Shown here: piece by piece, positions 2-21,361 of the stretch
How the letters are laid out: each line of letters begins with the position of its first letter
Position numbering within the stretch: position 1 is the first letter of the stretch
Source of the DNA: a virus
Lineage: Duplodnaviria; Caudoviricetes
Length of the DNA: 24,293 nt
Direction: 5' to 3' (one strand)
Virus record (IMG/VR): IMGVR_UViG_3300048598_000221
Coordinates: 1 to 24,293 of that record
Notes under the pieces: model-generated
What the model saw: only the letters and a program-made list of their open reading frames with translations
Databases searched by the model: none
Told to the model about the DNA's origin: nothing
Position numbers and translations under genes: made by a program

Positions 2-631
2 GGCGCCGAAACTATCGGGCAGGTATGGACGGAGTGGGTTCGAGATACATTCACCAACCACGATCTGAGTAGGCCTGGAAACATGGTTTGCTTCGCCTGC
101 CAGCATGCCTGCACTTACTACAGCGATGGGCTCAAAGAGAGAGCCGGCGGCAGCCGGATGATGAACTACAGCCACTTTGTTTTGAATGGGGAATGGACCG
201 CGATCTCGAAGGGCAATAAGCCGCAGATGTTGGGTCTACTACGCCAAACCCCGGAGGTTGCAATTTTTGCCCTGAGCGGCCAAAAGCATTTGGTTCTACG
301 GGCTCGGATTGGATGGTGGCAAATCGAGGAGCACGCCATCCGTCCAGATATGCCGAAATTCAACCACATTTATTCAGTCGTCGATGAACTATACCAAGGA
401 GGATTTTCAAAGACAGAGATCGAATCTGGAACTTATAGCCACCGAAGGGTCCTAGACTTTGGACTCGAACGCTGGATTGAGCTCGACGGGATTGTTAAAG
501 AGAGCAGATCGACGCCGGTGTTCGATCTTGCTTTGTTTCTAGTCACGAAACAGGAAGAGAAAGGCGAAAAGCATGGTGACACGCGACGAGTTGGTGAGCA
601 AACTTCTCTACCCTTGCTGGCGTGGGATTGA
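2..631 (+). CDS. csf1: Type IV-B CRISPR-associated large subunit Csf1 (Cas8-like), 5' partial
   Basis: Frame is open from base 2 (GAETIGQVWTEWVRDTFTNHDLSRPGNMVCFAC...), so the track start at 83 is internal; TFTNxD..CxxC Zn motif and later SGQKHL motif; directly upstream of cas11/csf2. Confidence 0.75.
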   Translation, partial: GAETIGQVWTEWVRDTFTNHDLSRPGNMVCFACQHACTYYSDGLKERAGGSRMMNYSHFVLNGEWTAISKGNKPQMLGLLRQTPEVAIFALSGQKHLVLRARIGWWQIEEHAIRPDMPKFNHIYSVVDELYQGGFSKTEIESGTYSHRRVLDFGLERWIELDGIVKESRSTPVFDLALFLVTKQEEKGEKHGDTRRVGEQTSLPLLAWD

Positions 632-1064
632 CGAATCGTACAAGTCGAAATATCGACAGACGATCTGGCAGCAGTTCGAAGACGCGATAAAGTCCGCCAG
701 CTACACGGATGATCTCGCTAAGTTCTGGGAGCGCCTATCGCGGCGGCTCTACTGCGCGCCGCGGGCGGCAGATTCGAGCGCGATCGCGGAGATCGTGAAT
801 AGTAACGACGGTGGAATTTTGCCGATGTTGCGCGAGCAGACCGGCATCCTCGTGCTGATGGTGCGGGTAGCGAACGACGCACGAAGAAGCGCCGCGCGGG
901 AGCAGCGCCTGGTGGATGAAGAGGTCGAACGCGAAGCGCGATCGGGTAGTTTATTCTCACAACCCTTGCCGGGCGAGTTGAGCGAAGACAACGAAAGGAC
1001 AGACGAAGGTGAAGACATACGAACTGAACGTGAAGCTAACGGCTCTCTCTTCGATTTCTCATAA
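573..1064 (+). CDS. cas11: Type IV-B small subunit (Cas11-like), helical
   Basis: 163 aa helical-looking protein (IWQQFEDAIKSASYTDDLAKFWERLSRRL) between csf1 and csf2, the small-subunit position in IV-B loci. Confidence 0.7.
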   Translation: MVTRDELVSKLLYPCWRGIDESYKSKYRQTIWQQFEDAIKSASYTDDLAKFWERLSRRLYCAPRAADSSAIAEIVNSNDGGILPMLREQTGILVLMVRVANDARRSAAREQRLVDEEVEREARSGSLFSQPLPGELSEDNERTDEGEDIRTEREANGSLFDFS

Positions 1065-1974
1065 CGGTGGAGAGAGTTTTGGAACGGCATCGAAGTTCCG
1101 CCGCATTAAAGTCGTTGACCCGTGCGGAACGGTAGTAGAAGTCCCGGAAGTCAGCGGCAATGCAATGCGCGGACTGCTGCGGGATCTGGTGCATTCCAAC
1201 CTTTGCCAGGCGCTCGGGTTTGGAGAAGACGGGAATGGGCTGACGCTTCCAGCGTTTCATTTCCTATTTTCCGGTGGAGGACTGAACGCGGCGAGTAACG
1301 GTCTTGACATTGATTACTACAAGCGGCTGCGAAACCTGCTTCCTACGGTATCGGTTTTCGGCGGAGGCGTGGGCAATGCGCTGCTTCCTGGAAAGCTGTG
1401 TTGCGGCGCCTTGATTCTGGTCTGCGCCGAAAATGCCGGGCGGCTACCTGAGATGTACAGAGAGTCGGCCGCGACAGGTCAGAGTTGCTGGACGTTCCTT
1501 CAAGAAGAGATGAACACACGGAAGGACGACAGTAAGAACCCGCAGCGGCAGAGCCTGCTCACTGCGATGGACCGTTTGATGTTGGAGGAATCGGAGCGCG
1601 CGAAAAAGGCAAAGCGCGACGCCGGCGACGACGTGGCGGGCGCGACCGGCGCGGCTACGCAGATGATGTACACGACCGAGACGCTGATCGCCGGTTCGAT
1701 TTTCTCCTGGCGCCTGGTGCTTCGGGATGTGACGGATGTGGAGTTTGAAGCATTTATGGTCGCGCTCGCGGAGCTCGCCAAGCACCCATACCTCGGGGGT
1801 AAATCTGGGACCGGGCATGGCCAAGTCCAGATGGAAATGCCGGACTGGCGCGAACTCGGCGTCGCGCTCGCGCCGACAGACTCCGCGGTCGCCTCGCCGC
1901 TGGGACGGCTATACAGCGAGCATCTGAAGGCAAACGCCGCATCTATCCGGCAGGTCCTGCGGGAAATGAAATGA
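1009..1974 (+). CDS. csf2: Type IV CRISPR backbone RAMP Csf2 (Cas7 family)
   Basis: RAMP motifs LTALSSISH, VPEVSGNAMRGLLRD, FLFSGG, VSVFGG and Gly-rich loop LGGKSGTGHG; GTG start. Confidence 0.9.
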   Translation: MKTYELNVKLTALSSISHNGGESFGTASKFRRIKVVDPCGTVVEVPEVSGNAMRGLLRDLVHSNLCQALGFGEDGNGLTLPAFHFLFSGGGLNAASNGLDIDYYKRLRNLLPTVSVFGGGVGNALLPGKLCCGALILVCAENAGRLPEMYRESAATGQSCWTFLQEEMNTRKDDSKNPQRQSLLTAMDRLMLEESERAKKAKRDAGDDVAGATGAATQMMYTTETLIAGSIFSWRLVLRDVTDVEFEAFMVALAELAKHPYLGGKSGTGHGQVQMEMPDWRELGVALAPTDSAVASPLGRLYSEHLKANAASIRQVLREMK

Positions 1975-2714
1975 AGGGACTGAAGCGGGAGCGCGCTCTG
2001 CTGCACGCGAGAACGAGTAGATTTCTTTCCGCGGTGGTCGCGGCGCGCCACAATGTTGACCAGGCGCTCCGGGCCTGCGCGACCTGGTATATCGCGCTCA
2101 GCGGCGGGAAGGACTCGACGGTTGTTCTGGATCTTGTTCGCAGCGCGTGTGCGGAAGTGCCCGCAACCCATTCACAACGACAATGGGAACTTCCGGAGAC
2201 GGCGGCTTATTTGAGCCGTGTCGGGAATGTCCGGCGCGTTTCCTACTTTGGTCTGGATGGAACTGACTGGGCGAGAAGCTGGGATTCAAAGGAGAGCGCG
2301 GAGCAGGCCGGCGTCGTATGGCTGGATGATGCTAATGCCATTGCCTGTCGGGGCGCAGTAGAGGATGGGGTTTTTCTTGGGCTCCGGGCCGATGAGAACG
2401 GCTACCGGCGTGTGCACCTAAGAACACTGGGCCCGCTGCATAACTTGAAGGGCACGAAGAAGTGGCATGCGAACCCGATCGCTTTTTGGTCGGTGTGGGA
2501 CGTCTGGGCCTATATCTACAGCCGGGGGATCGATTATAACCTCGCTTACGACCGTTTGGATGATCTGGGAATCGAGCCGGAGCGGCAGAGAATCGGTCCG
2601 CTCGCCGTAGAGCGCGCCTTGGGGTACGGACAGATCGCCATCCTGAAGCGGGGCTGGCCGGAGCTCTGGAATCGTTATGCGGCCGAACATCCGGAAGCGA
2701 GGCAGTATGCGTAG
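1971..2714 (+). CDS. cysH: CysH/PAPS-reductase-like PP-loop protein associated with type IV-B
   Basis: ALSGGKDS PP-loop, FLGLRADE, NPIAFWSVWDVWAYI; ATGA overlap with csf2 stop. Confidence 0.88.
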   Translation: MKGLKRERALLHARTSRFLSAVVAARHNVDQALRACATWYIALSGGKDSTVVLDLVRSACAEVPATHSQRQWELPETAAYLSRVGNVRRVSYFGLDGTDWARSWDSKESAEQAGVVWLDDANAIACRGAVEDGVFLGLRADENGYRRVHLRTLGPLHNLKGTKKWHANPIAFWSVWDVWAYIYSRGIDYNLAYDRLDDLGIEPERQRIGPLAVERALGYGQIAILKRGWPELWNRYAAEHPEARQYA

Positions 2715-3132
2715 TAGCCGATACAGCCTGCATGAGGAGGTGCTACTCACTGGCGGTTCTGCCGTTAGGCACTCGCCGGCCGCCTTGGGCCATCAAATCG
2801 GCAAGTCAGAGAGCGCAGTTTTGCACTGGTGGTGGAGATGGCATCAGTCACCGGCAGTGCGCTGGATGACGTCGGGACGGGCTGCGCGCGAGGCGGGAGT
2901 CAGCCAGCAGTATCTGACGGCGGAGGTTCGACGAGGACGGCTCCGGGCCTACCGGATGCCACCAAGGTCAGGAAATCGAACTGCCAGGACTTGGTGGCTG
3001 TTTGATTGGGAGGAAGTGGAAAGGTGGAAGCATGCGAGAGTACAGTCGTCTGCCGCGCGCCATCATGCGCCCGCTGCAAATTACAGCAATGTTGCAGTCC
3101 CCAGTGATCTCCGACGAGTCTCTGCCGATTGA
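2707..3132 (+). CDS. Helix-turn-helix DNA-binding protein (Xis/MerR-like domain)
   Basis: WMTSGRAAREAGVSQQYLTAEVRRGRLRA...WLFDWEEVERW matches the excisionase-like HTH pattern; ATG at 2707 overlaps the cysH end and the ORF fills the gap to csf3. Confidence 0.7.
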   Translation: MRSSRYSLHEEVLLTGGSAVRHSPAALGHQIGKSESAVLHWWWRWHQSPAVRWMTSGRAAREAGVSQQYLTAEVRRGRLRAYRMPPRSGNRTARTWWLFDWEEVERWKHARVQSSAARHHAPAANYSNVAVPSDLRRVSAD

Positions 3133-3745
3133 CGGAATTCTGCGGGCGGCGATGATGCGTGACGCTTACGGCGAACAAACTTACACGGTTGCCGGGGATG
3201 GCCGGGAACACGGTTCCGGTGTCAGCCTGCCAATTGCGCGTTGCGAAGAGCAGGGGCCGCAATGGTATTACGCGGCCTCGTGGGCGCAATGGCCGCAAGC
3301 GGTCGCGTATGGGAAGGATCACTGGAATAAACGGATCGACATGCCGCTTTCGGGGATGATCGACTTCACAGGGAAGCGCGGCCGCATCGAGGTGTCTTCG
3401 GGCAGATACAAGAGCTTCCATATGCCAGTGTTTTATCGGCACGCGCAGATTGTGTGGTGGTACGTCCTCGGGCATGCGCCGGCTTTACGCCTGATCCTTC
3501 CGCATTGCACGCATCTGGGAAAGAAAGTGTCGCAAGGATGGGGCAGTGTGCTGAGTTGGAGCGTCGACGAAATCGAGGCGGATCTCAGTGTGCGCCAGCG
3601 GTCGGGCGAGCCTAATAGGGCGATTCCGAGCCCGGCGGGCACCGTCTTGATCGGCTTCCGGCCATCGTACTGGAATCCGCAGAACCAGGCGCTTTGCGAG
3701 ATTCCGCCGTTGCGCGACGGCTGCGGATCTGAGGAGACAAACTGA
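3032..3745 (+). CDS. csf3: Type IV CRISPR RAMP Csf3 (Cas5 family)
   Basis: PLQITAMLQSPV, LPIDGIL, C-terminal Gly loop LGKKVSQGWGSV, RAIP and RPSYW; start either ATG 3032 (AAGGTGG upstream) or ATG 3065. Confidence 0.85.
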   Translation: MREYSRLPRAIMRPLQITAMLQSPVISDESLPIDGILRAAMMRDAYGEQTYTVAGDGREHGSGVSLPIARCEEQGPQWYYAASWAQWPQAVAYGKDHWNKRIDMPLSGMIDFTGKRGRIEVSSGRYKSFHMPVFYRHAQIVWWYVLGHAPALRLILPHCTHLGKKVSQGWGSVLSWSVDEIEADLSVRQRSGEPNRAIPSPAGTVLIGFRPSYWNPQNQALCEIPPLRDGCGSEETN

Positions 3746-4098
3746 TGGCGGTGTATATGCACACGCCCGCTCGGTACGACGGCGTCGACGGGCCGCGCTG
3801 CTTTCATGGTCGCGAGTTCAGCCATCTGTCGGCAGACACCGAGGAGGAGTTGCGCGCATACGCCTTCGCCGTCTGCCTGCCGTTGCGATGGCTCCAGGAT
3901 GCGGGCACGCCGTCGTTTCACTTCGACGTAACCGGGCAGTGGCTGAAGTTCTGCCTCCAGGATCATGCGGTGGAGAAAATCGACCGCCGGGAGTTCATCC
4001 AACGACTGCGAGCAAAGCGCGGCGAGCCGCGAACGGCCGAGCCGCCGGTGCCCGAGGCGGGCAGCTTCGATTTCGAATCGGGAGGCGAAGCAGAGTGA
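3745..4098 (+). CDS. DUF4031-like protein
   Basis: MAVY...SHLSADTEEELRAYA...WLQ...HFDVT pattern; TGATG coupling to csf3. Confidence 0.72.
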   Translation: MAVYMHTPARYDGVDGPRCFHGREFSHLSADTEEELRAYAFAVCLPLRWLQDAGTPSFHFDVTGQWLKFCLQDHAVEKIDRREFIQRLRAKRGEPRTAEPPVPEAGSFDFESGGEAE

Positions 4099-4283
4099 TC
4101 CTTCTGGCAACGAATCGCGGTGGCACTGTTGTCGATCGCCATGAGGAGACCGCGGCGGCCGAATGCTTCGAATGGATGGCCCAGCAGAAGGCGCAAGGGC
4201 GCATCCTGCACCGGGTGAGCGTGGAAGAGGCGGAGACAATCCGGAACGGGGCGCGCTACGTTCCGGAGAAGCACAAGGGATAG
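4095..4283 (+). CDS. Small hypothetical protein (62 aa)
   Basis: GTG at 4095 overlapping upstream TGA, GGAGG at 4081-4085. Confidence 0.6.
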   Translation: MILLATNRGGTVVDRHEETAAAECFEWMAQQKAQGRILHRVSVEEAETIRNGARYVPEKHKG

Positions 4284-4374
4284 AAAGCGCGCGGAGAGCG
4301 TTGAGAGACTCCGGCCGGTCGCCGAAAGTTTGGCGACCGAAGCGGCCGACCGGAGCGGAGCCCAAGGAGGGCCC

Positions 4375-4935
4375 ATGTCATTTTTGCAGAATCATACAGC
4401 GGCCTGGGAAACGGGGAACGCGGAAAGTGCTCGACGATTCCGACTGCTAGGATCCGGCGAACCTCGCAAGGTTTACGTTGCATCGAGTTGGCGCAATCAG
4501 ATCCAACCGGAAGTTGTCGCGCGGCTTCGCGCGGCCGGTCATAACGTCTATGACTTTCGCAATCCGAAACCGGAAGAGCATGGATTCTCGTGGTCGGAGG
4601 TGAATCCGGCCTGGCTGGGATGGACACCGGAGCAATTCATCGAAGACCTCTATTCGGGCCATCCAGCCATCGAGCGCGGCTTTTCGAACAATAAAGCGGC
4701 TCTGGACTGGTGCGACACCTGCGTCTGCGTGCTTCCGTGCGGGCGAAGCGCGCACTTGGAAGCCGGTTATGCGGCGGGACAGGGAAAGCTGGTGCTCTTC
4801 TTGCTCCAGCCCGAGGCCTTCGAGCCTGAACTGATGTATCTACTGGGGCACTATTGCGTGAGCTCGATTGACGAGCTGCTGAAGACGGTGGCCGAGGAAT
4901 GGGTTCTCGGCGAGCCGGAAGCTGAACGCGGCTGA
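4375..4935 (+). CDS. Nucleoside 2-deoxyribosyltransferase-like / nucleotide N-glycosidase fold protein
   Basis: KVYVASSWRN, ALDWCDTCVCVLPCGRSAHLEAGYAAGQGK (Glu of ExGY motif retained); AAGGAGG at 4364-4370 before ATG 4375. Confidence 0.78.
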   Translation: MSFLQNHTAAWETGNAESARRFRLLGSGEPRKVYVASSWRNQIQPEVVARLRAAGHNVYDFRNPKPEEHGFSWSEVNPAWLGWTPEQFIEDLYSGHPAIERGFSNNKAALDWCDTCVCVLPCGRSAHLEAGYAAGQGKLVLFLLQPEAFEPELMYLLGHYCVSSIDELLKTVAEEWVLGEPEAERG

Positions 4936-4947
4936 AGGGGCGCAGCT

Positions 4948-6789
4948 ATGAAGAAACCATGCGAACCACTCAGCGGCGAAATTGCGCCTGATGAACTGAT
5001 CGCCGATAACCGCGTCGACGGAGGACGCAGAGGACATCGCTCGATCGAGGAGAAGGACGGAATGACGGAAATGCAAACGAGCTCAATGGAAAGCACTGCG
5101 ATGCCACCGGTTCCGGCGACGCCTGCGCCGGCAGCCTACCGATTGGTCGCGATCGAAGAGATCGTGGAATCGGCGTGGAACCCTCGCCGCCATTATGATG
5201 AGGCCGCTCTGGCGGAACTCGCCGAGAGCATCCGTAAGCACGGCATCCTGACGCCACTACTAGTGCGCCCGGTGGCTGGAAGTCGGTTCGAGATTGCCGC
5301 CGGTCACCGGCGGTACCGCGCGGCGAAACTTGCAGGTCTTGTTCAACTGCGCGTGATCGCCCAGGAGATGAGCGATCGGGAATTCTGCGAAATCTTGACC
5401 ATCGAGAACCTGCAACGCGCCGACGTGCACCCGCTCGAAGAGGCTGAAGGGTATCAACGGCTGATCGAGATGTACGGCTACACTCCGGTCGCGTTGGCTG
5501 AACGAGTCGGCCGAAGTGAGAGCTATGTACAAAAGCGCCTGGTGCTTCCAAGGCTGATAGAGCCGCTGAAGGACGCGTTCCTGAAAGGCGAACTGGAGCT
5601 TGGGCACGCGTTGCTGCTTTGTCGGCTTCCGGAGCCAGACCAGCAGCGTGCACTCAAGGAAGCCCTATTTGAGGACGTCACGAAATGGGACCAGAGGACC
5701 GGCGCGCGGGTTCGGATGGGTAGGACTACCGCGTCAGTCAGCGAGCTGCGCGTTTGGATCGAGTCCGATGTGATGCTCGATCTCTCGACTGCGCCCTGGA
5801 ATCCCGAGGACTTGAAGCTTGTGAAGAAGGCCGGGCCGTGCACTCAGTGTGCAAAGCGGACCGGCAGCAATCTCACACTGTTCGATGATGCCAAGAAGGG
5901 TGATCACTGTCTCGATCGCGCCTGCTGGCACCAGAAGATGAACGCCAGCATTCAGCGGACGGAAGCGCAATTCAAGTCGGGCGGTAAGCCTCTCTTGAAG
6001 ATTTCCAGCCAGTACTCGAGCGAGAAAGGCGTCCTTTCGAATCACGAATACCACCGAGCTCTCGACGGCAAGAAGATAAAGAACTGCCCAAACCTCGAAA
6101 AGGCTTTGGTCGTCGACGGCCGGGATAAGGGGTTCGTGGTTGACATCTGCCGTACGACGTCTTGCGCGGTTCACTTCGACCAGCGATCGCACGGATACGT
6201 GGTTGCGAAGCGCGACAAACCATTCGCAGACATCTGGAAGGACAAGAAGACCCGTCTCGACGAGAGGATCGCCATTGAGCTCAAGCGCGAGCTGTGGCGC
6301 CAGGTAGTGCATGATGTCCCCGAGGAATTCAACCGGCCCGAGATGGAACTTGTCGGCCGCAAGCTCATCCAACGCGCCGGCCATGATGGACGCCAGGCGC
6401 TGTGCGGTGTCCTTTCGCTAGCGGGCGAGAAGCACAAAGAATACGCGGGCTACGATTTCGAGAAGCCGCTTGTCGCGCACATGGAGGCGTTGGCCGAGAA
6501 GGATCTTCCAGGGTTCCTCGTCGGACTATCGCTCTATGGAGCGCTTTGCTACGACGATGCGGATCTGATCACCGTCGCTGAGCTCTACGAGATCGACGTC
6601 AAGGCCGTTGAGGCGACGATCGCTGGCCCGCTGCGCGCCGACTTCGAAAAGAAGAAAGCGAAGGCAGCGGCCAGCCACGCTGCCAAGGAGAAAGTTGAAA
6701 AGGCGGCGGCGAAGAAAACAGCGCCCGCGGAGAAGACCACGAAGCGCAGAAAGAGCGCCCCGGCAGCCAAGAAGACGAAGGTCAGTTGA
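4948..6789 (+). CDS. Large ParB/RepB/Spo0J-family protein with Cys cluster and Lys/Ala-rich tail
   Basis: NPRRHYD, LAESIRKHGILTPLLVRP, AGHRRYRAA, ENLQRADVHPLEEA, HTH ALAERVGRSESYV; alternative start ATG 5062 with GAGGAG/AAGGA upstream. Confidence 0.9.
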   Translation: MKKPCEPLSGEIAPDELIADNRVDGGRRGHRSIEEKDGMTEMQTSSMESTAMPPVPATPAPAAYRLVAIEEIVESAWNPRRHYDEAALAELAESIRKHGILTPLLVRPVAGSRFEIAAGHRRYRAAKLAGLVQLRVIAQEMSDREFCEILTIENLQRADVHPLEEAEGYQRLIEMYGYTPVALAERVGRSESYVQKRLVLPRLIEPLKDAFLKGELELGHALLLCRLPEPDQQRALKEALFEDVTKWDQRTGARVRMGRTTASVSELRVWIESDVMLDLSTAPWNPEDLKLVKKAGPCTQCAKRTGSNLTLFDDAKKGDHCLDRACWHQKMNASIQRTEAQFKSGGKPLLKISSQYSSEKGVLSNHEYHRALDGKKIKNCPNLEKALVVDGRDKGFVVDICRTTSCAVHFDQRSHGYVVAKRDKPFADIWKDKKTRLDERIAIELKRELWRQVVHDVPEEFNRPEMELVGRKLIQRAGHDGRQALCGVLSLAGEKHKEYAGYDFEKPLVAHMEALAEKDLPGFLVGLSLYGALCYDDADLITVAELYEIDVKAVEATIAGPLRADFEKKKAKAAASHAAKEKVEKAAAKKTAPAEKTTKRRKSAPAAKKTKVS

Positions 6790-7497
6790 GTGCCGCGCCG
6801 ATTGTGGTCGCAAGACGAAGTGCGTCAGTTTGTAGCGCTGTACCCGCAGCGCGCGACGAAGGACATCGCCAAACTGCTGGGGCGGACCGTCTCTAGCGTA
6901 TACGGAATGGCCGAGAAGCTCGGGTGCGTGAAGTCGCCGGAGTTTCTTGCGAGCGAGGAATCCGGGCGATTCCGCAAGGGACAGTCACGGCCAGGCACGG
7001 AAGGGACGCAGTTTCAGAGAGGTCACGTGCCGGCGAACAAGGGTCTGCGACGACCTGGCTATGCTCCGGGCCGAATGAGGGAGACGCAATTCCAGCGTGG
7101 CAACCGCACTGGCGTGGCTGCCACGAACTGGGTGCCCATTGGGACGATCCGAACTGACGCGGATGGGTATCTCAGGATCAAAGTCAGAGACGCGGTGTAT
7201 GGCAAGGAGCCAACCGGCTACGGCAACGTGAGGGGCTGGCCGCTATACAGCCGTTGGCTGTGGGAGCAGCACCATGGTCCCATCCCGCCGAAACACATCG
7301 TCACGTTCAAGGACGGCGATCGGGCGCACTGCGTAATTGAAAACTTGGAGCTGTTATCTATGGCGGACAATGCCCGCCGGAACTCGATGTGGAGCACGCT
7401 TCCGCGCGAGCTGGCCGAACTGATCCAGTTGAACGGAGCTTTGAAAAGAAAGTTGAGAACAGCGAGTGGCAAAGAACAAAATCACAGACTTGCGTGA
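6790..7497 (+). CDS. Phage HNH endonuclease-like protein
   Basis: WEQHHGPIPPKHIVTFKDGDRAHCVIENLELLSMADNARRN; repeated TQFQRG motifs; N-terminal HTH-like segment. Confidence 0.8.
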   Translation: MPRRLWSQDEVRQFVALYPQRATKDIAKLLGRTVSSVYGMAEKLGCVKSPEFLASEESGRFRKGQSRPGTEGTQFQRGHVPANKGLRRPGYAPGRMRETQFQRGNRTGVAATNWVPIGTIRTDADGYLRIKVRDAVYGKEPTGYGNVRGWPLYSRWLWEQHHGPIPPKHIVTFKDGDRAHCVIENLELLSMADNARRNSMWSTLPRELAELIQLNGALKRKLRTASGKEQNHRLA

Positions 7498-7759
7498 CCA
7501 CCTCTTCGAAACTCTCGAGGCGCTGAAAGATCCTGACAATCCAATGGAACTGGATCGGGCCAAGGCGATCAGCGAGGTAGCGCAGACGATCATCAACGCG
7601 GCCAGAGTTGAGGTTGACCTGGTGAAGGCTATGAACGCGAGCGCTCCCGGCAGCGCTTCGTTCTTCAACCTGCCCGAGGAACATGGTGACCTGGCCAAGC
7701 TGCCCCCGGGCAATGAGCGATGGCGAAACCCTAGAATGCTGCGTACGAGGGAAGGCTGA
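7466..7759 (+). CDS. Phage hypothetical protein (helical)
   Basis: KNKITDLRDHLFETLEALKD...RAKAISEVAQTIINAARVE resembles small phage proteins that follow this HNH type. Confidence 0.75.
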   Translation: MAKNKITDLRDHLFETLEALKDPDNPMELDRAKAISEVAQTIINAARVEVDLVKAMNASAPGSASFFNLPEEHGDLAKLPPGNERWRNPRMLRTREG

Positions 7760-7766
7760 TTCGAAC

Positions 7767-8114
7767 GTGAGCGCACTACCGATCTCTGCGACCGCGTGCG
7801 GCGAACTGCTGCCTGGATGGGCTGAGGTAAAGCCCGGCCTCTACTGGCGCCGTGGTGAGCCCGGGGCGACCTACGCGGCTGTGACACTCGATTTGGCCAA
7901 GCCTGCGAATGCAGGCATCTATCTGGTCGCGTTCTACGCTCCGGACGGTACGGCCATTCAGCGTCGCCCGGTGGCAGGACTCGACAGGGCGCTGCAGATC
8001 GCCGACGCGCTCTATCGCGGCCATGGCACGCCCGCCGTTGTCGGTTGTGCGGCGCCCCGGCGAGAGGCCACGAGGGGCCGCAGCACGCTGCGATTTGATT
8101 GGGCGGTGGTGTGA
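7767..8114 (+). CDS. Hypothetical protein
   Basis: GTG at 7767 just after upstream stop with purine-rich SD-like GAGGGAAGG; TGATG coupling to next gene. Confidence 0.55.
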   Translation: MSALPISATACGELLPGWAEVKPGLYWRRGEPGATYAAVTLDLAKPANAGIYLVAFYAPDGTAIQRRPVAGLDRALQIADALYRGHGTPAVVGCAAPRREATRGRSTLRFDWAVV

Positions 8115-8356
8115 TGCGGCGACACGCTCGCAAGCCCATCTCGATGCACGGCGTTCCAGTGACGCCTGGCTCGGAGTGGATCATTAAGCGCCTGTGGGTG
8201 GATACGCGCATCAAGATCATCGCGCGGTGCCGGGACGGGCCGGGATGGTGGGCTTACGTGCTCGAGACGCGGGAGACCATCCGCGTGCGCCACGCCTGGC
8301 AGCTACTGCGGCCAGCGCGAGCGGAGGGCGAGATATTCAGCGATCGCCGCGACTGA
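8114..8356 (+). CDS. Hypothetical protein
   Basis: ATG overlapping upstream TGA; fills the gap before the replication gene. Confidence 0.55.
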   Translation: MRRHARKPISMHGVPVTPGSEWIIKRLWVDTRIKIIARCRDGPGWWAYVLETRETIRVRHAWQLLRPARAEGEIFSDRRD

Positions 8357-8383
8357 GGCGAAACGATCGCCGGAGAGAGTGAA

Positions 8384-9414
<1,031 letters not shown>

Positions 9415-9418
<4 letters not shown>

Positions 9419-9711
9419 AATGCGAACTGTGTGGTGGATCCGGCCTGCAGATGGAATATTCTCTGCGCCCAGTCCGCCCATCACCTGGCGGACAAACCAT
9501 CATCGGGCCGGCTCGGCCGCTCACGCGGGAGCAGTTCGAAGATCTCCGCCAGCGCGGCCTGCCGAGCTCGGTGTTGGAATGGCGTCCGGGTGCTGAGGGT
9601 TGGATCTCCGAAAGCGCACGGATCTGCCAGTGTCGGATTGATGCGGCGCGCAGGGACAAGGAAAAGCCGGCGCGCAGACGTCACGCGACGAAGGGAGGGC
9701 AGGAGGCGTGA
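9415..9711 (+). CDS. Small Zn-finger protein (CxxC...CxC)
   Basis: MKCELCGGSG...ARICQCR; ATGA overlap with replication gene. Confidence 0.72.
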
Positions 9712-9923
9712 CCGGGCAATGGATTCCCGCGAAAGAAGCGGCGGAAAAACTCGGCGTCAGCGAGCGCACGGTGCGCCGGTCAATCCAAGATGGAACGATC
9801 CCTGGAAGGCGAATTGGCAAGCGGCTGTTGTTCGTCGAGCGGGCGTACGTGGAGGCGAAGGAACAGAGTAATCATCGGTACTTATTGGCACACAACGGTA
9901 CATATCGGACAGAAAATGCTTAA
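9708..9923 (+). CDS. Excisionase-like (HTH_17-type) DNA-binding protein, candidate late-gene activator
   Basis: WIPAKEAAEKLGVSERTVRRSIQDGTIPGRRIGKRLLFV; GTGA overlap, GGAGG SD. Confidence 0.85.
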   Translation: MTGQWIPAKEAAEKLGVSERTVRRSIQDGTIPGRRIGKRLLFVERAYVEAKEQSNHRYLLAHNGTYRTENA

Positions 9924-10517: not shown

Positions 10518-10958
10518 ATGCCGAACCTTCCAGCGCGTGCATGCAGTACTCCCGGTTGCGGCGGATCCAGCCAGACCGGCGATAGCCTCTGCACTGCCTG
10601 CCGGCAGAAGCGGGAGCAACGCCGCGGAAACTCGGCAGAGCGAGGCTACGACAAGCAACATCGGCAGCTCCGAGTGCAGTGCTTCCTGCGCGATGAATGG
10701 CGTTGCCGCGAGTGCGGGTGGGAACCGGAGATCGTGAGCCAGTTTCGATTGGCGGGGCTCGGCCTGCCGGATCCGGATGTAGTGCTCGATGAGTTGCGCC
10801 GGGCTTTCCTGTGCGGCAACCGGCATCTGCATGCGGATCACGTGGTGCCTATCGAGTCCGATGCCAGCCAGCGTCTAGACCTGGGCAACCTCCAAACACT
10901 CTGTGATCTCTGCCACCGGCGCAAGACCCAGGCAGAGGGGGCCCTGGCGGCGAGATGA
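10518..10958 (+). CDS. Terminase-associated HNH endonuclease (HK97 gp74-like)
   Basis: SAERGYD, CRECG, ADHVVP, NLQTLCDLCHRRKT; immediately upstream of terS. Confidence 0.9.
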   Translation: MPNLPARACSTPGCGGSSQTGDSLCTACRQKREQRRGNSAERGYDKQHRQLRVQCFLRDEWRCRECGWEPEIVSQFRLAGLGLPDPDVVLDELRRAFLCGNRHLHADHVVPIESDASQRLDLGNLQTLCDLCHRRKTQAEGALAAR

Positions 10959-11087
10959 CCGGGCGACCGGGTAGGGTGGGTCGAATACCTACGGCTCCAA
11001 GTGCCGTGACCAAGCTGGCTTCATCCGCAAACATCCGCAGGTTTTCAGAATTTTTTCGAAGTTCGACGATTTTGAACTGAAGGGATT
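10959..11087. other. Probable cos/packaging-initiation region
   Basis: Non-coding gap between HNH and terS with G-rich start, CATCCGCA repeated at 11022 and 11032, T-rich tract; position expected for cos phages with this gene order; exact cut site not determinable. Confidence 0.5.
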
Positions 11088-11660
11088 ATGGGACTGAGAG
11101 GGCCCGCACCGAAGCCGACGGCACTACGCGTGATGGAGGGCAATCCATCCAAGCGCGCACTGCCGGAGAACGAGCCCGCATACGCGGCCGGAATTCCGGA
11201 CCTGCCGAAGCGCGCGAGCGCGGCGGCCCGCAGGATCCACGCCGAGCTGGCGCCGGAAATGATGGACGCGCGCGTGCTGCGCCGCGTCGACAAGCGCGCT
11301 CTCTGGCAGCTCTGCGAAGACGAGGCCCTGCTCGAGGAACTCTATGCGGGCATCACGGTACGTGTGCGCGAGCTGAAGGATGAGCGGAAGCGCCCCGCGG
11401 CATCGCAACCGGCGGGGCAGCCCGATGCACAGACCACCGAAGAGAGCGCGACGCATCCTCGCAATCCAGCGACGGCGCTCCTCGATCTGCTTTCGACGCA
11501 TGAGGGCCGGCGGCTCATGAATTCGCTGAACAACCTGGGCGGCCGCATCATCCTGGAGCGGCGCGAATTTGGATTGACGCCGAGCGCGCGAACGCGTATC
11601 AACACGGATTACGATCGCGGCCCGGCCGCCGACAACCTGGAACTCGATTTGTGTGGCTGA
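11088..11660 (+). CDS. terS: Terminase small subunit (P27 family)
   Basis: MGLRGPAPKPTALRVMEGNPSKRAL and EFGLTPSARTRI signature motifs. Confidence 0.93.
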   Translation: MGLRGPAPKPTALRVMEGNPSKRALPENEPAYAAGIPDLPKRASAAARRIHAELAPEMMDARVLRRVDKRALWQLCEDEALLEELYAGITVRVRELKDERKRPAASQPAGQPDAQTTEESATHPRNPATALLDLLSTHEGRRLMNSLNNLGGRIILERREFGLTPSARTRINTDYDRGPAADNLELDLCG

Positions 11661-13359
11661 GTACAAGCCGGATACCTGTGCATACTGTCAGACGGACACC
11701 TGGTGCGAGACGCGCAGCAACGGCAAACCGATGTGCCGGGCGTGCAAGGTCGAGCGCTTCTATTCCCGCATTCTGTACCCGCCGCTTGGCCTCACGCTCA
11801 TGGGGTGGCAGTCGAAGGCGCTGCGCGAGCTGGTCGGCACTGTACGTCCGGAGAATGGGCTCCGCCTTTATCACCGTGGTTACATCAGCACGGGCAAGCA
11901 AAACGGCAAGTCCTTCCTATCGGGTGGACTGCCCATCTATCACATCCTCATGGATGACGAGGAATACCCGGAAGCCTACGGCGCCGCGGCTGCAAAAGAG
12001 CAGGCGGGCATCGTTTTCAAGGCCGCGGCGATTCTGGTAAATGCGAACGTCGATCTGCGCGACCGGCTGAAGATCATTCCATCGATGAAGCGGATTGTCC
12101 GGCGCGATGGCGGCGGGCTGTACCAGGTACTCTCGGCGGATGGCGACGTGCAGGATGGTATCCGACCCTCGCTGCTGATCCGTGATGAGATGCACCGCTG
12201 GAAAACGAGCAAGGCGCAGACCCTGTACGACGTCACGACGAAGGGCCAGATTTCGCGGACAGAGCCACTTGACCTCGCAATCACTACCGCCGGCGCAGAG
12301 TACGAATCGCCGCTCTGGTATGGGGAATATGAATTCGCAAAACGCGTCCTGGATGGTTCGATCAAATCGGAGACGTTCTACGCGTTGATTTTCGAAGCGA
12401 ATCGAAAGCGGCTCGAAGCGGAGCCCGAGTATTGGAAGTCCCGGGAGGCGCGAGTGGCGGCGAATCCCAGCCATGAGGACCATGGCGGATTCTTGAAGGA
12501 TGCGTCGCTTGTGCGGGAACTCGAAAAGGCGATTGCGCAGCCGGCAGACAAGAGCAAGTATCTGCGCTACCACCTAAACGTGCCGATTCAAACGCAGGAA
12601 GATCCGGTCGTCGATATGGCCAAGTGGCAACTCTGCGGCGGCGACGTCGATCTCCGGAAATGGACCGAGTGGGCAGGCTATGACGTCGACCGCCTCGTTG
12701 AAAAGTGGAATCTCAAGGGGAAGCCATGCTGGGCCGGAGTCGACGCGAGTTGGACCACGGATATGACGGCCGTCGTGTTCGTGTTCCCGCCCGAGGAGGA
12801 GGCCGGGCCCTGGACGCTGCTTCCGTTTTTCTGGATGCCCAAGAGTCGCGTTCCAGAAATCGAGCGAGTCTGCCGCATGCCGTTTTCCGATTGGATCGAG
12901 CGCGGATTCGTCGCGGCGACGCCGGGAAATGCGATCGACATGCGTGCCATCGAGGACCGTTTGAAGTGGGGCGACGGCGTGTTTGACTTGCAGGAAATCG
13001 ACTATGACCGCTGCAATTTCCGGTCAGAGGCGATGGATTTGGCGGACCAGGGGCTGCCGACGATGGAAGTCACGCAGTCCTTCATGCATTTGAGCGCGCC
13101 GACAAAATTTTTCTTGCGCTGTATCCCCGATCTGCAGTTTCGGCACGGCAATCATCCAGTGCTGAACTGGATGGCCGGGTGTCTGCAACTGCAATACGAC
13201 CACAAGGACAATTGCCAGCCGGTCAAACCGGAGCGGCTGAAGAGCACCAAGCGGATCGACGGCATTGCCGCCATCGTGAACGCGCTCAGCCGCGCAGTGA
13301 CGAATGAATCAAGCCGGTCGCTGTTTAGCGCCTACACCGGATTGAGGAGCGTGGGCTAG
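11653..13359 (+). CDS. terL: Terminase large subunit
   Basis: Walker A GKQNGKS, Walker B LLIRDEMH, ITTAG, nuclease AGVDAS and KRIDGIAA. Confidence 0.96.
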   Translation: MAEYKPDTCAYCQTDTWCETRSNGKPMCRACKVERFYSRILYPPLGLTLMGWQSKALRELVGTVRPENGLRLYHRGYISTGKQNGKSFLSGGLPIYHILMDDEEYPEAYGAAAAKEQAGIVFKAAAILVNANVDLRDRLKIIPSMKRIVRRDGGGLYQVLSADGDVQDGIRPSLLIRDEMHRWKTSKAQTLYDVTTKGQISRTEPLDLAITTAGAEYESPLWYGEYEFAKRVLDGSIKSETFYALIFEANRKRLEAEPEYWKSREARVAANPSHEDHGGFLKDASLVRELEKAIAQPADKSKYLRYHLNVPIQTQEDPVVDMAKWQLCGGDVDLRKWTEWAGYDVDRLVEKWNLKGKPCWAGVDASWTTDMTAVVFVFPPEEEAGPWTLLPFFWMPKSRVPEIERVCRMPFSDWIERGFVAATPGNAIDMRAIEDRLKWGDGVFDLQEIDYDRCNFRSEAMDLADQGLPTMEVTQSFMHLSAPTKFFLRCIPDLQFRHGNHPVLNWMAGCLQLQYDHKDNCQPVKPERLKSTKRIDGIAAIVNALSRAVTNESSRSLFSAYTGLRSVG

Positions 13360-14738
13360 TGTTTCCAGGCATTCGCTCGGTGATGAAGGAATGGGCCGGC
13401 CGGGACCGCGGCCTCACTGCGCTGGATATCGAGCAAAAGGCGGCTGGCGGCATCACTTTCGATGCGGTAAGCGTCGGTTGGTATGCACGGAACGGCTACC
13501 CGGGCATCTACTCGATTATGTCGGGCGGAATGCCCGCCTGGTCGGGCGAGCCCGTATCGACTGAGACAGCCCTGAATCACTCCGTTGTCTGGGCCTGCAA
13601 CCGGCTCATTTCGGAATCCGTCGGACTCATTCCGTGCCTGATGTATCGCCAAGCCGGAAACGCAAAAGATCAGGCTGCCCGGCATCCGATGTTTCGCGCG
13701 CTCGCCAAAGGGAACGATGACGAGGCCGCGCAGGCGATGACCGAGCGCCAGACGACGCATTGCGTGCTCGGTGGAAATGCCTATAGCCAGATACTTCGTC
13801 GCAGCGGTGTGGGGACGGCGGTCGAATTGATTCCGCTGGAACCGACCGAAGTAACTCCGGACCGGGAGGTCGGCGGCGCAAGGCGGCTCGTCTATGTGGT
13901 CAAGGCCGGCAATGCGGCGGCGAAGACGTACACGATCGAGCGGAACAAGCCGCATCCGATTTTGCACGTACGGGGCTTCAGTTGGGACGGATTGCGCGGC
14001 TTCAGCGTGGTCACGATGGCGCGGCAATCCATCGGTACCGCGACGAGCATGGAGCGCAACGTGGCGAGGTTTTACGCCAACGGGGGCCGCGTTCCCTACT
14101 TGTTGGAACTTGCGAGCAAGTTCAAAACGGATGCCGAATACGAGAGGTTCCGCACCGACTGGGAAAAGCTTTACCAGGAACCGCACCGGGCTCCAATCCT
14201 AGAGCCCGGGATGACATATAAGCAGACTGGGATGTCCATGGTGGACGCCCAGCTGCTGGAAAGCCGGGTCTTCACGATCCAGGAGATCTGCCGGTGGTTT
14301 TCGGTCAACCCAACCATGGTTGGCGAACTGTCGCGCGCTACGTTTAGCAACATCGAGCACCTATTTCTGCAGTTTTTGAAACTCACCCTCAACTCATGGC
14401 TGACCAGGTGGGAACAGGATCTCTGGCGCTGCGTTCTGACGCCAGACGAAAAGGACGAGGGGTATTTCTTCCACCATGATGTGCGGGCTCTGTTGCGCGG
14501 CGACTTCGCCAGTCGCATGGCCGGCTACGCCTCGGCGCTCCAAAATGGACATCTCTCGATCGACGAAGTCCGAGATGAAGAAGATCGCAATCCGCTGCCC
14601 GACGGGGCTGGCTCGCATTATCACATTCAACTGAACATGCAGACCGTCCGCGGCGGTGACGAGACGCTGGCGAGCGATGCACAGGCTGCCGAGGGGACCG
14701 GCAAATCCGGCAGCTCGCAACTGGTGCGAATCAAATAG
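13359..14738 (+). CDS. Portal protein, HK97 family
   Basis: VWACNRLISESVG, GNAY, DGLRGFS, ICRWFSV, TFSNIEH, LLRGD, DEVRDEED. Confidence 0.96.
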   Translation: MFPGIRSVMKEWAGRDRGLTALDIEQKAAGGITFDAVSVGWYARNGYPGIYSIMSGGMPAWSGEPVSTETALNHSVVWACNRLISESVGLIPCLMYRQAGNAKDQAARHPMFRALAKGNDDEAAQAMTERQTTHCVLGGNAYSQILRRSGVGTAVELIPLEPTEVTPDREVGGARRLVYVVKAGNAAAKTYTIERNKPHPILHVRGFSWDGLRGFSVVTMARQSIGTATSMERNVARFYANGGRVPYLLELASKFKTDAEYERFRTDWEKLYQEPHRAPILEPGMTYKQTGMSMVDAQLLESRVFTIQEICRWFSVNPTMVGELSRATFSNIEHLFLQFLKLTLNSWLTRWEQDLWRCVLTPDEKDEGYFFHHDVRALLRGDFASRMAGYASALQNGHLSIDEVRDEEDRNPLPDGAGSHYHIQLNMQTVRGGDETLASDAQAAEGTGKSGSSQLVRIK

Positions 14739-14765
14739 TGCTCGACTTTTCGAGGTGAACCGACA

Positions 14766-15785
14766 ATGACACTTTTCACGCATAAGAATCATGGGGCCCG
14801 AGGAAAGAACGCCGGCCTGCAAACCAAAGATATGATGCGGCTGGAGATCAAAGAGATCTCCGAGCAAGGCGTTTTCGAAGGGATTCTCTCGCCCTATGGC
14901 AACGTCGACGAGGGCGGCGATGTTGTTGAGTCGGGCGCGTTCACGAAGACGCTCAAAGAGCAGGGCAATGAGCGCCCACTGTTGTGGCAGCATCGGCCTG
15001 GCGAACCAATCGGTAAGCTGACTCTCACCGATACGGAAGAGGGATTGCTCTGCAAAGGGCAGCTCCTGCTCGATGACGCGCTGCCGGAAGCGCGCAAGGC
15101 CTATTTGCTGATCAAGAACAAGATCGTCAAAGGCCTGTCGATCGGCTTTGAGTCGATTCGAGATTCCGTCGAGGGAACGGTCCGGCACCTCAAAGAGGTC
15201 AAGCTCTACGAAGGCAGTGTCGTCACGTTCCCTATGAATGAGCTGGCGCTGATTACATCCGTGAAGAAGCGCGAGACAAAGAGCCACGAGGCGAAGGGCG
15301 ACTTTAGCGAAGAGCTCGAGGAGCGCCAGTTGCTCGACGCCTGGTATCAGATGAAATCGGCGCTGAGCGATGCGCTGTGCTCGATGCTCTACAGCGGCGC
15401 CAGCCGGGAGGACAAGCTGGTGATGGCGGAGACCATCATCCAGCAATTCCATGACGCTTTCATGGATTTCCTGCCTGACTACCTCGATGCCGCCGCCGAG
15501 GTGTACGGCATCAAGGGCCGGAAGCCCTTCGAAACGAAGGAGGGGCGTACCATCAGCGCCTCCACTCGCGAGACTTTGGCGACCGCGCACAAGTGCGTAA
15601 AGGACGCCGTTGACATTCTGTCGGCACTTTTGGAATCGGACGCCGGCGAGACCGACGAGGGCAAACCCAAGTCGGCGGCCACCTCCGAGAAAAAAGCCGC
15701 CACCGAATCTGCCGCGCCGGGTGACCACTCGGCAGTGTTGCGTGGAATTGATGAACTGAAGGAGACGATGATATGGACCCGGTAG
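14766..15785 (+). CDS. Prohead protease, HK97 family, with C-terminal extension
   Basis: LLWQH, GLSIGF, LYEGSVVTFPMN; GAGGTG SD at 14752-14757. Confidence 0.94.
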   Translation: MTLFTHKNHGARGKNAGLQTKDMMRLEIKEISEQGVFEGILSPYGNVDEGGDVVESGAFTKTLKEQGNERPLLWQHRPGEPIGKLTLTDTEEGLLCKGQLLLDDALPEARKAYLLIKNKIVKGLSIGFESIRDSVEGTVRHLKEVKLYEGSVVTFPMNELALITSVKKRETKSHEAKGDFSEELEERQLLDAWYQMKSALSDALCSMLYSGASREDKLVMAETIIQQFHDAFMDFLPDYLDAAAEVYGIKGRKPFETKEGRTISASTRETLATAHKCVKDAVDILSALLESDAGETDEGKPKSAATSEKKAATESAAPGDHSAVLRGIDELKETMIWTR

Positions 15786-16984: not shown

Positions 16985-17006
16985 ACCGCAGCTTCCATTT
17001 AAGGCA

Positions 17007-21360: not shown

Positions 21361-21361
21361 G

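Follow-up and report, generated by a model that had tools for sequence, protein, structure and literature searches.

A subtype IV-B CRISPR-Cas module in a tailed phage and the exchangeable enzyme at its core

What does a tailed phage do with an array-less CRISPR effector module? The question is raised by a 24,293-base contig, which is the whole of IMG/VR virus record IMGVR_UViG_3300048598_000221 (Duplodnaviria; Caudoviricetes) and is called the window here. Six ORFs, csf1-cas11-csf2-cysH-like-HTH-csf3 in that order and all on the + strand (2-3745), sit upstream of the phage replication, head and tail genes. As recently as 2026 the function of such modules was called unclear, according to the introduction of PMC13676074.

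The locus and its phage setting

The contig starts inside csf1 (2..631, +), so that this gene for a Cas8-like large subunit (PADLOC Csf1_0_IV, 4.5e-17) is 5'-truncated and the sequence ends there on the upstream side. About 25 residues of the family consensus, including the first Cys pair, are absent; the second cluster, CFACQHAC, is retained. The small subunit gene cas11 (573..1064, +; Cas11_1_IV, 4.1e-26), the Cas7 backbone gene csf2, which has a GTG start (1009..1974, +; Csf2_0_IV, 5.7e-66), and the Cas5 gene csf3 (3032..3745, +; Csf3_0_IV, 4.7e-43) all match PADLOC profiles, with the matches of Csf2 to TIGR03115 (3.7e-16) and of Csf3 to TIGR03116 (5.4e-15) falling under the curated cutoffs. 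Csf2 has 479 homologs, the best non-self one 63% identical, and against the PDB the family profile finds IV-B Csf2 best (7jhy_e, 1.6e-35), with IV-C Cas7 (3e-25) and IV-A Cas7 (~1e-10) behind. The top fold match of the Cas11 model is 7jhy_g (E 0.07, probability 1.00, TM 0.50/0.56). With Csf2 as signature gene, Csf1 (cut at the contig end), Csf3, a separate Cas11 and a cysH-like gene whose product lacks the catalytic cysteine, the locus is canonical subtype IV-B, and its operon looks intact apart from the cut in csf1. These profile matches, that of the cysH-like gene included, and the matches to 7JHY chains uphold a preliminary description, which had recognised a type IV-B effector module, without an array, in the DNA of a tailed phage and had named such searches as a check. 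It had also reported no array, cas1/cas2, cas6 or dinG, and indeed no array, Rfam family, tRNA, cas6, helicase or adaptation gene was found in the 24.3 kb, which begin inside csf1. Subtypes IV-A and IV-D were considered and rejected, since the window holds no DinG/RecD helicase, cas6 or array and has both CysH and Cas11, the latter being missing from IV-A. Subtype IV-C was rejected because its large subunit is Cas10-like with an HD domain, whereas that of the window is a short Csf1.

The module genes had been described as linked by overlapping start and stop codons. This is correct for csf2/cysH (4 nt) and cysH/HTH (8 nt), but the other three joints are long out-of-frame overlaps of 59 nt (csf1/cas11), 56 nt (cas11/csf2) and 101 nt (HTH/csf3). 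The unbroken run into phage genes is likewise seen in the shared orientation and in the csf3 stop, which has 1 nt in common with the ATG of a DUF4031 gene at 3745, but intervals of about 90-130 nt separate genes further on (4283-4375, 9923-10033 and 10958-11088). Presumed early and replication genes occupy 3745..9923 (+): DUF4031, nucleoside deoxyribosyltransferase-like, ParB-like, HNH, replication initiator and excisionase-like HTH. Within 10521..24292 (+) lie HNH, terminase small and large subunit, portal, prohead protease and major capsid genes, together with a glycosyltransferase/methyltransferase block, head-tail connectors, major tail and a cut tape measure gene. Could the Cas/phage joint be an assembly chimera, or the module a decaying passenger? 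None of the 23 terminase relatives of this phage shows the module in its fetched DNA, which reaches 10 kb upstream in just three of them, and csf1 has the lowest G+C of the window genes (0.52). However, csf3 overlaps the next start codon, the frames are all intact, GC3 of cas11, csf2, cysH and csf3 (0.67-0.71) lies inside the early-gene range (0.61-0.80), and the same module occurs in many phage genomes, including that of an isolate, Skermania phage SPI1, where the IV-B locus is unannotated. We consider such an artefact or relic extremely improbable.

Virus-borne IV-B loci have been published for Fuxiviridae (PMC10848311), a Methanoperedens virus (10.1101/2023.08.02.551345) and prophages (10.1101/270033), and they are common: we found 136 IMG/VR stretches. 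In 36 of 64 groups of at least 12 kb, the fetched DNA also includes a terminase large subunit. The locus itself is therefore of limited surprise. It is ordinary for its subtype and incomplete, and its value lies in comparison across relatives. The locus of the Mycobacterium sp. JS623 Csf complex (PDB 7JHY; PMC7937560) and plasmid loci of Rhodococcus share csf1-cas11-csf2-csf3 and a cysH-like gene with the window; adaptation genes, dinG, cas6 and an array are not seen in them, nor in the window as far as it reaches, from inside csf1 onwards. The window Csf2 is ~31-33% identical to plasmid homologs; Csf2 and Cas11 match 7JHY chains best, and the assembly of a Csf2/Cas11 ribonucleoprotein filament is known from JS623 only. 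Unlike its actinobacterial plasmid counterparts, the module is carried by a tailed phage and has an inserted HTH gene and overprinted tail motifs, and its cysH is co-oriented between csf2 and csf3, whereas that of pROB01 is divergent and upstream. The Fuxiviridae, Methanoperedens virus, prophage and SPI1 loci carry the same five genes. An array is absent from the Methanoperedens virus, whereas the Fuxivirus, whose host is an archaeon, has a mini-array; for the prophage loci, a figure legend of 10.1101/270033 mentions HTH and N6-methyltransferase neighbours.

The enzyme slot beside csf2 and csf3

The CysH-like PP-loop protein, CasCysH (1971..2714, +; PF01507, 3.8e-14), carries SGGKDS at residues 44-49 (2100-2117). 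Among 86 CasCysH sequences S44, G46, K47, S49, G137, E142, R146, P169 and R207 are invariant and the PP-loop and Arg-loop residues are kept, but the alignment contains no conserved catalytic cysteine. The missing Cys was remarked in PMC8175902, where CasCysH was proposed to modify RNP-bound nucleic acid; by the argument made there, its absence renders sulfate reduction or phosphorothioation by known chemistry unlikely. Phage cysH-like genes of this sort should not be annotated or counted as sulfur-metabolism genes. DndC, SspD, BrxP and IbrA, which belong to DNA-modifying or defence systems, and true CysH have the same PAPS-reductase fold and PP-loop region, and differ from CasCysH in that cysteine. 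PADLOC matches are to BrxP (8e-12), DndC (3.8e-6) and SspD (0.007), and NCBIfam scores are all far under the curated cutoffs (TIGR00434, 18 bits against 165; DndC, 26.9 against 290). Given these scores and the lack of a conserved Cys, identity with true PAPS reductase (CysH) or DndC was rejected. TtuA and TilS are among the relatives of CasCysH, whose profile also weakly matches Cap9, which we take to be a protein-modifying QueC relative. The model (pLDDT 93.7) has as its nearest folds the FAD synthase PAPS domain and PAPS/APS reductases, small-molecule enzymes whose proximity counts against base modification.

Of 84 complete, non-redundant loci, all of which include csf3 and 900 nt or more of downstream sequence, none has an empty slot: it holds CasCysH in 73, a TGT/DpdA-like protein in five, and a radical SAM enzyme, a SAM methyltransferase or an IbrA/IbrB-like pair in two each. 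Every locus thus has an occupant, and the occupants, swapped repeatedly, are unrelated predicted modifying enzymes. The TGT/DpdA-like family is dedicated to IV-B operons. In a reciprocal search, all 20 viral loci found with it (14 groups at 90% identity, four of which were search seeds) lie inside IV-B operons, none with cysH in the operon; we found no earlier description of this dedication in the literature. Its predicted structure agrees with DpdA and TGT clusters at TM 0.74-0.80. In the Csf2-led set the two enzymes do not co-occur (TGT in 0/73 loci with CysH against 5/11 others; Fisher p 1.5e-5, loci counted as independent). In a quick Csf2 tree, where the window Csf2 sits on a long branch, TGT loci are sister to CysH loci with SH-aLRT of 98-99 (L060/L069 and L085/L022), which forces at least three changes, and a single TGT clade is rejected in a 37-row subset. 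A beta-glucosyltransferase-like gene adjoins the TGT-like gene in four loci (phrog_7922 at 5e-5 and 1.3e-6 in two of the four), SpoU-family genes occur in L010 and L062, L021 has RrnaAD/TRM5-like matches, and N6/N4 DNA methyltransferase genes neighbour relatives' modules.

Next to cysH, the small HTH protein (2707..3132, +) has an excisionase/MerR-like domain with weak matches (phrog_66, 1.1e-4; PADLOC mad1, 5.1e-5; ESM Atlas HTH clusters, 0.89-0.91). Of 99 candidates none is a homolog of it at E<=0.001, and it matches only itself among related loci, many of whose operons contain other, unrelated HTH genes. It is likely a regulator and stands outside the conserved core.

Overprinted tails of Csf1 and Cas11

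Bacterial beta-clamp clients such as Hda, Pol III/IV/V, TnsE and MuC carry short motifs, either Q-x-x-L-F or hexameric, at the ends of disordered tails. Similar candidates occur in IV-B proteins, where they overprint the following gene in another frame. In 62 of 117 loci, csf1 still reads open where the Cas11 anchor lies. Of these 62 tails, 51 extend at least 25 codons past the anchor (shuffles: mean 10.1, maximum 19) and 26 terminate in QxxLF (mean 0.065, maximum 1), in tests that count related loci as independent. Judged from these sequences, the Csf1 tail motifs overprinted on cas11 are under selection across relatives, and many relatives have a tail that finishes in a predicted grip for the clamp of DNA replication. 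For Cas11, [LM]F is present in 22 of 90 tails (shuffled mean 3.9, maximum 9) and in 5 of the 7 loci that share the cas11/csf2 type of overlap (mean 0.22, maximum 2), a pattern picked in both cases after inspection of the data. Across loci, a Cas11 motif does not stand in for a missing Csf1 motif, or the reverse (Fisher p 0.40). Neither tail motif is present in 51 of the 117 loci, which counts against a clamp tether; in SPI1, Csf1 stops before the Cas11 anchor and has no QxxLF.

The window itself has weaker versions. Its Csf1 lacks the long QxxLF tail, and the candidate clamp hexamer QTSLPL (599..616, +), out of frame over the cas11 start, agrees with the clamp-binding pattern Q-aliphatic-x-[LM]-x-[FL] save for Thr at position 2. 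Q..[LM][FL] or Q..[LM].[FL] arises there in 270 of 20,000 synonymous cas11 shuffles (1.35%). The Cas11 model has a helical core to about residue 128 (pLDDT 95-98) and an acidic, low-confidence tail (residues 131-163, pLDDT 58-60); SGSLF (942..956, +) stands at the end of the last helix and NGSLF (1038..1052, +) out of frame over the csf2 start, the latter overprint arising in 93 of 20,000 synonymous shuffles (0.5%). Both lack the canonical Gln. Compared with the client consensus (Q-aliphatic-x-[LM]-[FL] or the hexamer) and the Hda motif, as given in PMC11139829, QTSLPL, SGSLF and NGSLF each depart from it.

A proposed clamp-tethered scaffold and its alternatives

Based on these comparisons, we propose that Csf1, Cas11, Csf2 and Csf3 likely need no dedicated guide to form a filament on single-stranded nucleic acid. 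Short tail motifs are predicted to attach the complex to the sliding clamp of the host, and this attachment would carry the CysH-like, ATP-using enzyme, presumably in contact with the complex, to newly replicated phage DNA. The chemistry is probably activated by adenylation, the substrate would be DNA rather than RNA, and the modified phage DNA would likely be shielded from host nucleases. We hold that a clamp-tethered scaffold brings a base-modifying enzyme to replicating phage DNA with a confidence just short of even, because relatives swap the partner among predicted base-modifying enzymes and because tails are often clamp-like. Of the three functions offered beforehand, targeting of the CysH-like enzyme is thus the one favoured, with a slot filled in every locus and exchanged among unrelated enzymes. 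It is a more doubtful, though possible, extension that IV-B systems overall are CRISPR-derived, clamp-tethered machines for phage and plasmid DNA hypermodification and not guide-RNA immunity. A Cas7/Cas11 filament would then trail the replication fork with a plug-in writer, which may be CasCysH, a methyltransferase, a radical SAM enzyme or a dedicated base exchanger of the TGT/DpdA-like kind, the last accompanied in some cases by a glucosyltransferase; the present locus would be the CasCysH version, with clamp grips on Csf1 and Cas11.

What if the bound RNA is the point? The RNP might deliver the enzyme to RNA (a tRNA, a phage mRNA or the bound RNA itself) and alter its stability or translation. 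The JS623 complex assembles on heterogeneous RNA of 55-60 nt and is similar to type III-A Csm, which targets RNA (PMC7937560); this counts against DNA as substrate, as does the fact that several partner families (TGT, SpoU, RrnaAD/TRM5-like) are best known on RNA; the TtuA/TilS kinship of CasCysH is in keeping with this. Delivery to RNA nevertheless leaves the selected QxxLF tails and the beta-glucosyltransferase-like and N6/N4 DNA methyltransferase neighbours unexplained, and we judge it unlikely. With a borrowed guide (a crRNA of the host, a mini-array of its own or an RNA encoded elsewhere in the phage genome) the complex might instead silence or mark one particular DNA or RNA, a rival element for instance, much as IV-A does with DinG. 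The complete Cascade-like subunit set, the Cys clusters of Csf1, cas6 in 5 of 94 operons, two-repeat mini-arrays directly upstream of csf1 in L031 and in the Fuxivirus (PMC10848311), and upstream DNA beyond the contig leave room for this, which we rate as slightly less likely still. The preliminary suggestion of a dedicated phage RNA finds no support, as 90 upstream and 91 downstream regions of relatives contain no conserved flanking RNA.

A clamp-tethered complex could also act on proteins or on the replication or transcription machinery and not on bases. It might adenylate a protein or conjugate a nucleobase to it, make a second messenger, or control late genes through the clamp. The introduction of PMC13676074 proposes AMPylation or messenger synthesis, the clamp motif of phage Mu MuC serves late transcription (10.1101/2025.01.04.631326), and both the Cap9 match and the recurrent HTH genes are consistent with such roles. 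However, four unrelated chemistries in one slot fit any protective nucleic-acid mark better than one protein target, and we deem this account distinctly improbable. The crRNA sequestration suggested earlier, an anti-CRISPR sponge for host crRNAs or other small RNAs, is a published hypothesis that suits sequence-independent RNA binding and the placement among phage early genes. Yet it does not account for the obligatory, swappable enzyme or the selected clamp-like tails, crRNAs make up ~0.12% of the reads bound by the JS623 complex (PMC7937560), and PMC7038947 itself judged it unlikely; we find it very hard to credit.

By analogy, a module that marks DNA in the manner proposed likely works like phage DNA hypermodification systems, namely DpdA 7-deazaguanine exchange, T4-type glucosyltransferases and DNA methyltransferases. 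Relatives' slots hold DpdA/TGT-like and beta-glucosyltransferase-like genes, whereas the window has CasCysH alone and no such enzyme in the slot. We know of no phage DNA-modifying enzyme or hypermodification system that needs a Cas scaffold, so that the need for a filament is unexplained. If clamp-tethered modification is true, a CRISPR effector would have been reused as a replication-coupled DNA-marking machine. The always-filled, exchanged slot, and above all the TGT/DpdA-like family found only in IV-B operons, makes modified bases the product to expect under this model, and in the TGT version their chemistry should be readable by mass spectrometry. DNA methyltransferase-like genes also lie in the terminase region of 12 of the 23 terminase relatives of this phage.

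The locus in the window and its phage context

The contig carries a real, canonical and incomplete type IV-B locus on a phage. The preliminary description had read csf1-cas11-csf2-cysH-HTH-csf3, and PADLOC profiles together with PDB and fold matches bear out this arrangement, which lies on the plus strand, and its IV-B identity: csf1 (2-631; Csf1, 4.5e-17), cas11 (573-1064; Cas11, 4.1e-26; top fold match of the model, the IV-B Cas11 7jhy_g), csf2 (1009-1974; Csf2, 5.7e-66), the cysH-like gene (1971-2714), a small HTH gene (2707-3132) and csf3 (3032-3745; Csf3, 4.7e-43). The NCBIfam models for Csf2 and Csf3 also match, with scores under their cutoffs. A Csf2 family profile compared with the PDB placed the solved IV-B Csf2 7jhy_e first (1.6e-35), above IV-C and IV-A Cas7. 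The 24,293-base contig is the entire genome record and its 5' end falls within csf1, so that csf1 is present as described, but with about 25 N-terminal residues cut off. Linkage by overlapping start and stop codons, also claimed at first, fails for three of the five internal joints, which are long out-of-frame overlaps of 59, 56 and 101 nt. From position only, the module would be co-transcribed and early; a promoter scan gave 5 hits against 2.6 expected by chance and a terminator scan 18 against 9.6, most of the latter on the minus strand; both counts are close to chance or in modest excess of it. Searches of the 24,293 bases for an array, an Rfam RNA or a tRNA found none.

Downstream of the module lie early genes (DUF4031, nucleoside deoxyribosyltransferase-like, ParB-like and HNH genes, a replication initiator and an excisionase-like HTH gene), followed by morphogenesis genes for terminase, portal, protease, capsid, connectors, major tail and tape measure. 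Could the joint between the Cas and phage genes be an artefact? We regard this as highly improbable. The csf3 stop and the next ATG have one base in common and every frame is intact; GC3 of cas11, csf2, cysH and csf3 (0.67-0.71) lies inside the early-gene range of 0.61-0.80 and is lower than in most head and tail genes (0.73-0.81), with csf1 lower still (0.57). The module was not seen in any of the 23 terminase relatives (56-71% identical), of which only three extend 10 kb upstream. No sequencing run was listed for positions 1-6000, which is neutral as evidence. Gene context and terminase relatives fit an accessory cassette gained by this phage lineage.

Other features of the contig include a (Pro-Glu)n hexanucleotide repeat within the replication initiator gene, in its linker (8902-8964) and, between the capsid and head-tail adaptor genes, a block of three GT2 glycosyltransferases, a methyltransferase and an unknown gene (17053-20662), partly common to the terminase relatives L178, L197 and L199 (54-70% identity); by analogy with other phages, it possibly serves virion glycosylation. 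No viral relative of the ParB-like gene was found. Weak hints of an Acidobacteriota host come from 59% identity with a partial Csf2 in the related locus L093 and from some HTH clusters.

The exchangeable enzyme slot

The CysH-like protein of the window has a confident predicted fold (pLDDT 93.7), nearest to the FAD synthase PAPS domain, PAPS/APS reductases, CysD and TtuA. With a PP-loop and no conserved cysteine, it agrees with CasCysH as described in the available part of PMC8175902, where ATP alpha-hydrolase chemistry acting on nucleic acid in the complex is proposed. Among 86 aligned CasCysH sequences PP-loop residues S44, G46, K47 and S49 are invariant, as are G137, E142, R146, P169 and R207, and no cysteine is conserved. 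The nucleotide-binding site looks to be under selection, so that the term 'inactivated', used in the accessible text of PMC11656645, seems to us limited to the reductase activity. Phage PAPS-reductase homologs are treated in PMC11437467, as far as its available text goes.

The enzyme in this slot, beside csf2 and csf3, is exchanged. The 175 sequences fell into 125 groups at 90% Csf2 identity, 84 of them with csf3 and at least 900 nt past it; the remaining 41, truncated or mislabelled, were left out (22 with CysH, 1 with TGT, 18 with nothing visible). Across the 84, the slot holds CasCysH in 73, a TGT-like protein in five, a radical SAM protein in two, a small SAM methyltransferase in two and IbrA/IbrB-like proteins only in two, one of which has a short cysH further on; no group is enzyme-less. 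Radical SAM genes lie 3' of csf3 (L015:11585-13126, L056:11712-13253) and small methyltransferase genes between csf2 and csf3 (L021:4167-4649, L044:3826-4290, L222:3776-4261), in each case with no CasCysH. Extra genes seen in some CysH-bearing operons code for HTH proteins, IbrA/IbrB-like pairs, SpoU methyltransferases and Cas6. Pairs of IbrA-like (PAPS reductase + DUF3440) and IbrB-like (ParB) genes occur in or beside seven operons (L032, L039, L049, L076, L108, L112, L153), mostly alongside CasCysH and not instead of it, and cas6 occurs in 5 of 94 operons (L002, L051, L060, L070, L081), where no array was detected. The accessible text of 10.1101/270033 mentions an ADP-ribosyltransferase-family enzyme and an N6-methyltransferase in some IV-B loci.

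In the TGT/DpdA-like loci (L023, L059, L060, L061, L085, L173, L200-L219) this gene replaces CasCysH, at varying positions in the operon. The family matches PHROG 887 weakly, and its predicted structure matches DpdA and TGT clusters of the ESM Atlas (TM 0.74-0.80). Two aspartates, D42 and D193, are invariant, in motifs that we take to resemble the catalytic motifs of TGT. A beta-glucosyltransferase-like gene adjoins the TGT-like gene in four loci. Neither alignment gave a PDB sequence match or a fitting Pfam family, and both names are putative because they rest on weak PHROG matches and, for TGT, on the ESM Atlas. Reciprocal searches placed 20 of 20 viral TGT-like loci (14 groups, four of them seeds) inside IV-B operons. 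For the smaller families they contributed little: 3 of 3 glucosyltransferase loci, all seeds, lie in such operons, and so do 3 of 4 methyltransferase loci, two of them seeds and the fourth locus a weak partial match. None of the 20 TGT-like loci has cysH inside the operon; in two of them a cysH-like match precedes csf1, by 1.4 and 3.3 kb. A quick Csf2 tree requires six changes for the six TGT loci, at least three of them forced by starred branches, and gives these loci CysH-bearing sisters with support of 98-99. A single TGT clade is rejected by an AU test run on 37 self-chosen rows (6 TGT, 31 CysH); part of its very large likelihood gap may be due to a constrained search that performed poorly. 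These operons probably form a separate IV-B variant, worth a study in its own right; we found no such replacement in the literature, and loci of this kind may be listed in the supplements of PMC7038947, 10.1101/270033 and PMC12669027.

Tail motifs, guides and a proposed mechanism

In 62 of 117 groups the csf1 frame has no stop before the conserved Cas11 tryptophan, and the motifs of these overprinted tails are under selection. As measured by 200 synonymous shuffles of cas11, with related loci among the groups not independent, 51 of the 62 open tails extend at least 25 codons further (shuffle mean 10.1, maximum 19) and 26 end in QxxLF (mean 0.065, maximum 1). [LM]F is enriched in Cas11 tails (22 of 90 against 3.9, maximum 9), where the glutamine is missing; neither motif occurs in 51 of 117 groups. 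Substitution of the Csf1 and Cas11 motifs for each other was not supported (p 0.40). The Csf1 variants agree with the clamp-binding consensus in the available part of PMC11139829, and no report of a clamp motif in IV-B was found. Csf1 of the window has no long tail: it stops four codons after the anchor and ends in QTSLPL, close to the Hda motif given in the same text, an overprint reproduced by 270 of 20,000 shuffles. Its Cas11 has SGSLF plus an overprinted NGSLF (93 of 20,000 shuffles), located within or ahead of a tail modelled at pLDDT 58-60.

CRISPR-like repeats were found in 2 of 95 sequences, as a mini-array of two 28-nt repeats with a 35-nt spacer just upstream of csf1 (L031:127-217) and, 9 kb before csf2, an array of four repeats of 38-40 nt (L001:937-1195). 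No motif is common to 90 upstream or 91 downstream flanks, and any cross-match is confined to 11 upstream and 7 downstream loci, mostly pairs of close relatives. These results agree with the accessible text of PMC7038947 ('no arrays, mini-arrays or single repeats' for IV-B) and with the available part of PMC7937560, where the RNA of the JS623 complex is heterogeneous.

What might such a complex do? Tentatively, and at somewhat under even confidence, we propose that Csf1, Cas11, Csf2 and Csf3 would build a filament on single-stranded nucleic acid with no dedicated guide, that their putative clamp-binding tails would grip the host sliding clamp, and that an exchangeable writer, here CasCysH, would thereby be carried to newly replicated phage DNA, which, once marked, would be protected from host nucleases. 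We infer the clamp binding, the substrate, the chemistry and the benefit in this scheme. That the complex instead serves RNA modification is unlikely, and targeting with borrowed guides a little more so. Action on proteins, or clamp-coupled control of genes, is slightly less probable again; the latter has a precedent in 10.1101/2025.01.04.631326, as far as its available text goes. A sponge for crRNAs seems decidedly improbable. As described in the accessible parts of PMC12669027 and PMC13676074, IV-B systems are without nucleases and of unclear function, and what is of interest here lies in testable family-level clues more than in the window locus itself.

Spread and gene order of type IV-B modules

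A viral scan with the single Csf2 sequence as query found no relative. The Csf2 alignment search returned 136 stretches in IMG/VR and 167 in metagenomes, 80 of each being taken on for analysis, besides 13 in species genomes; Csf2 also matches 69 plasmids, mostly of Rhodococcus, and one phage isolate. By two self-built profiles, 46 of the 125 non-redundant groups, and 36 of the 64 that reach at least 12 kb, have a terminase large subunit gene in the DNA fetched for them. Phage carriage of IV-B is not new, since IV-B on prophages or viruses is already reported in the accessible parts of 10.1101/270033, PMC7038947, PMC11656645, PMC10848311 and 10.1101/2023.08.02.551345.

The order csf1-cas11-csf2 is fixed in the first 94 sequences, after which csf3 and cysH come in one order or the other, the two plain arrangements counting 41 and 26 sequences. 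No core-gene fusion was found among these 94; L020, L059 and L074 have long ORFs that seem to result from read-through upstream, as far as an early start codon. At L217:4677-5951, L061:10001-11230 and L078:4656-5837 the Csf2 ORF exceeds its usual length by about 70-100 residues; no separate cas11 was seen in L217, whose long Csf2 may hold a Cas11 insertion. Duplicated csf3 genes lie inside single operons at L145:6863-9371, where a second csf1 is also present, and L020:11411-13444. Decayed modules exist as well, with a shortened csf2 and no csf3 or cysH 3' of it (L057:6372-6920, L058:178-726). The phage isolate, Skermania phage SPI1 (L094; KR011061.1), is cultured and carries a complete five-gene module at orf40-44, annotated as hypothetical proteins only, which makes it a ready test system for IV-B.
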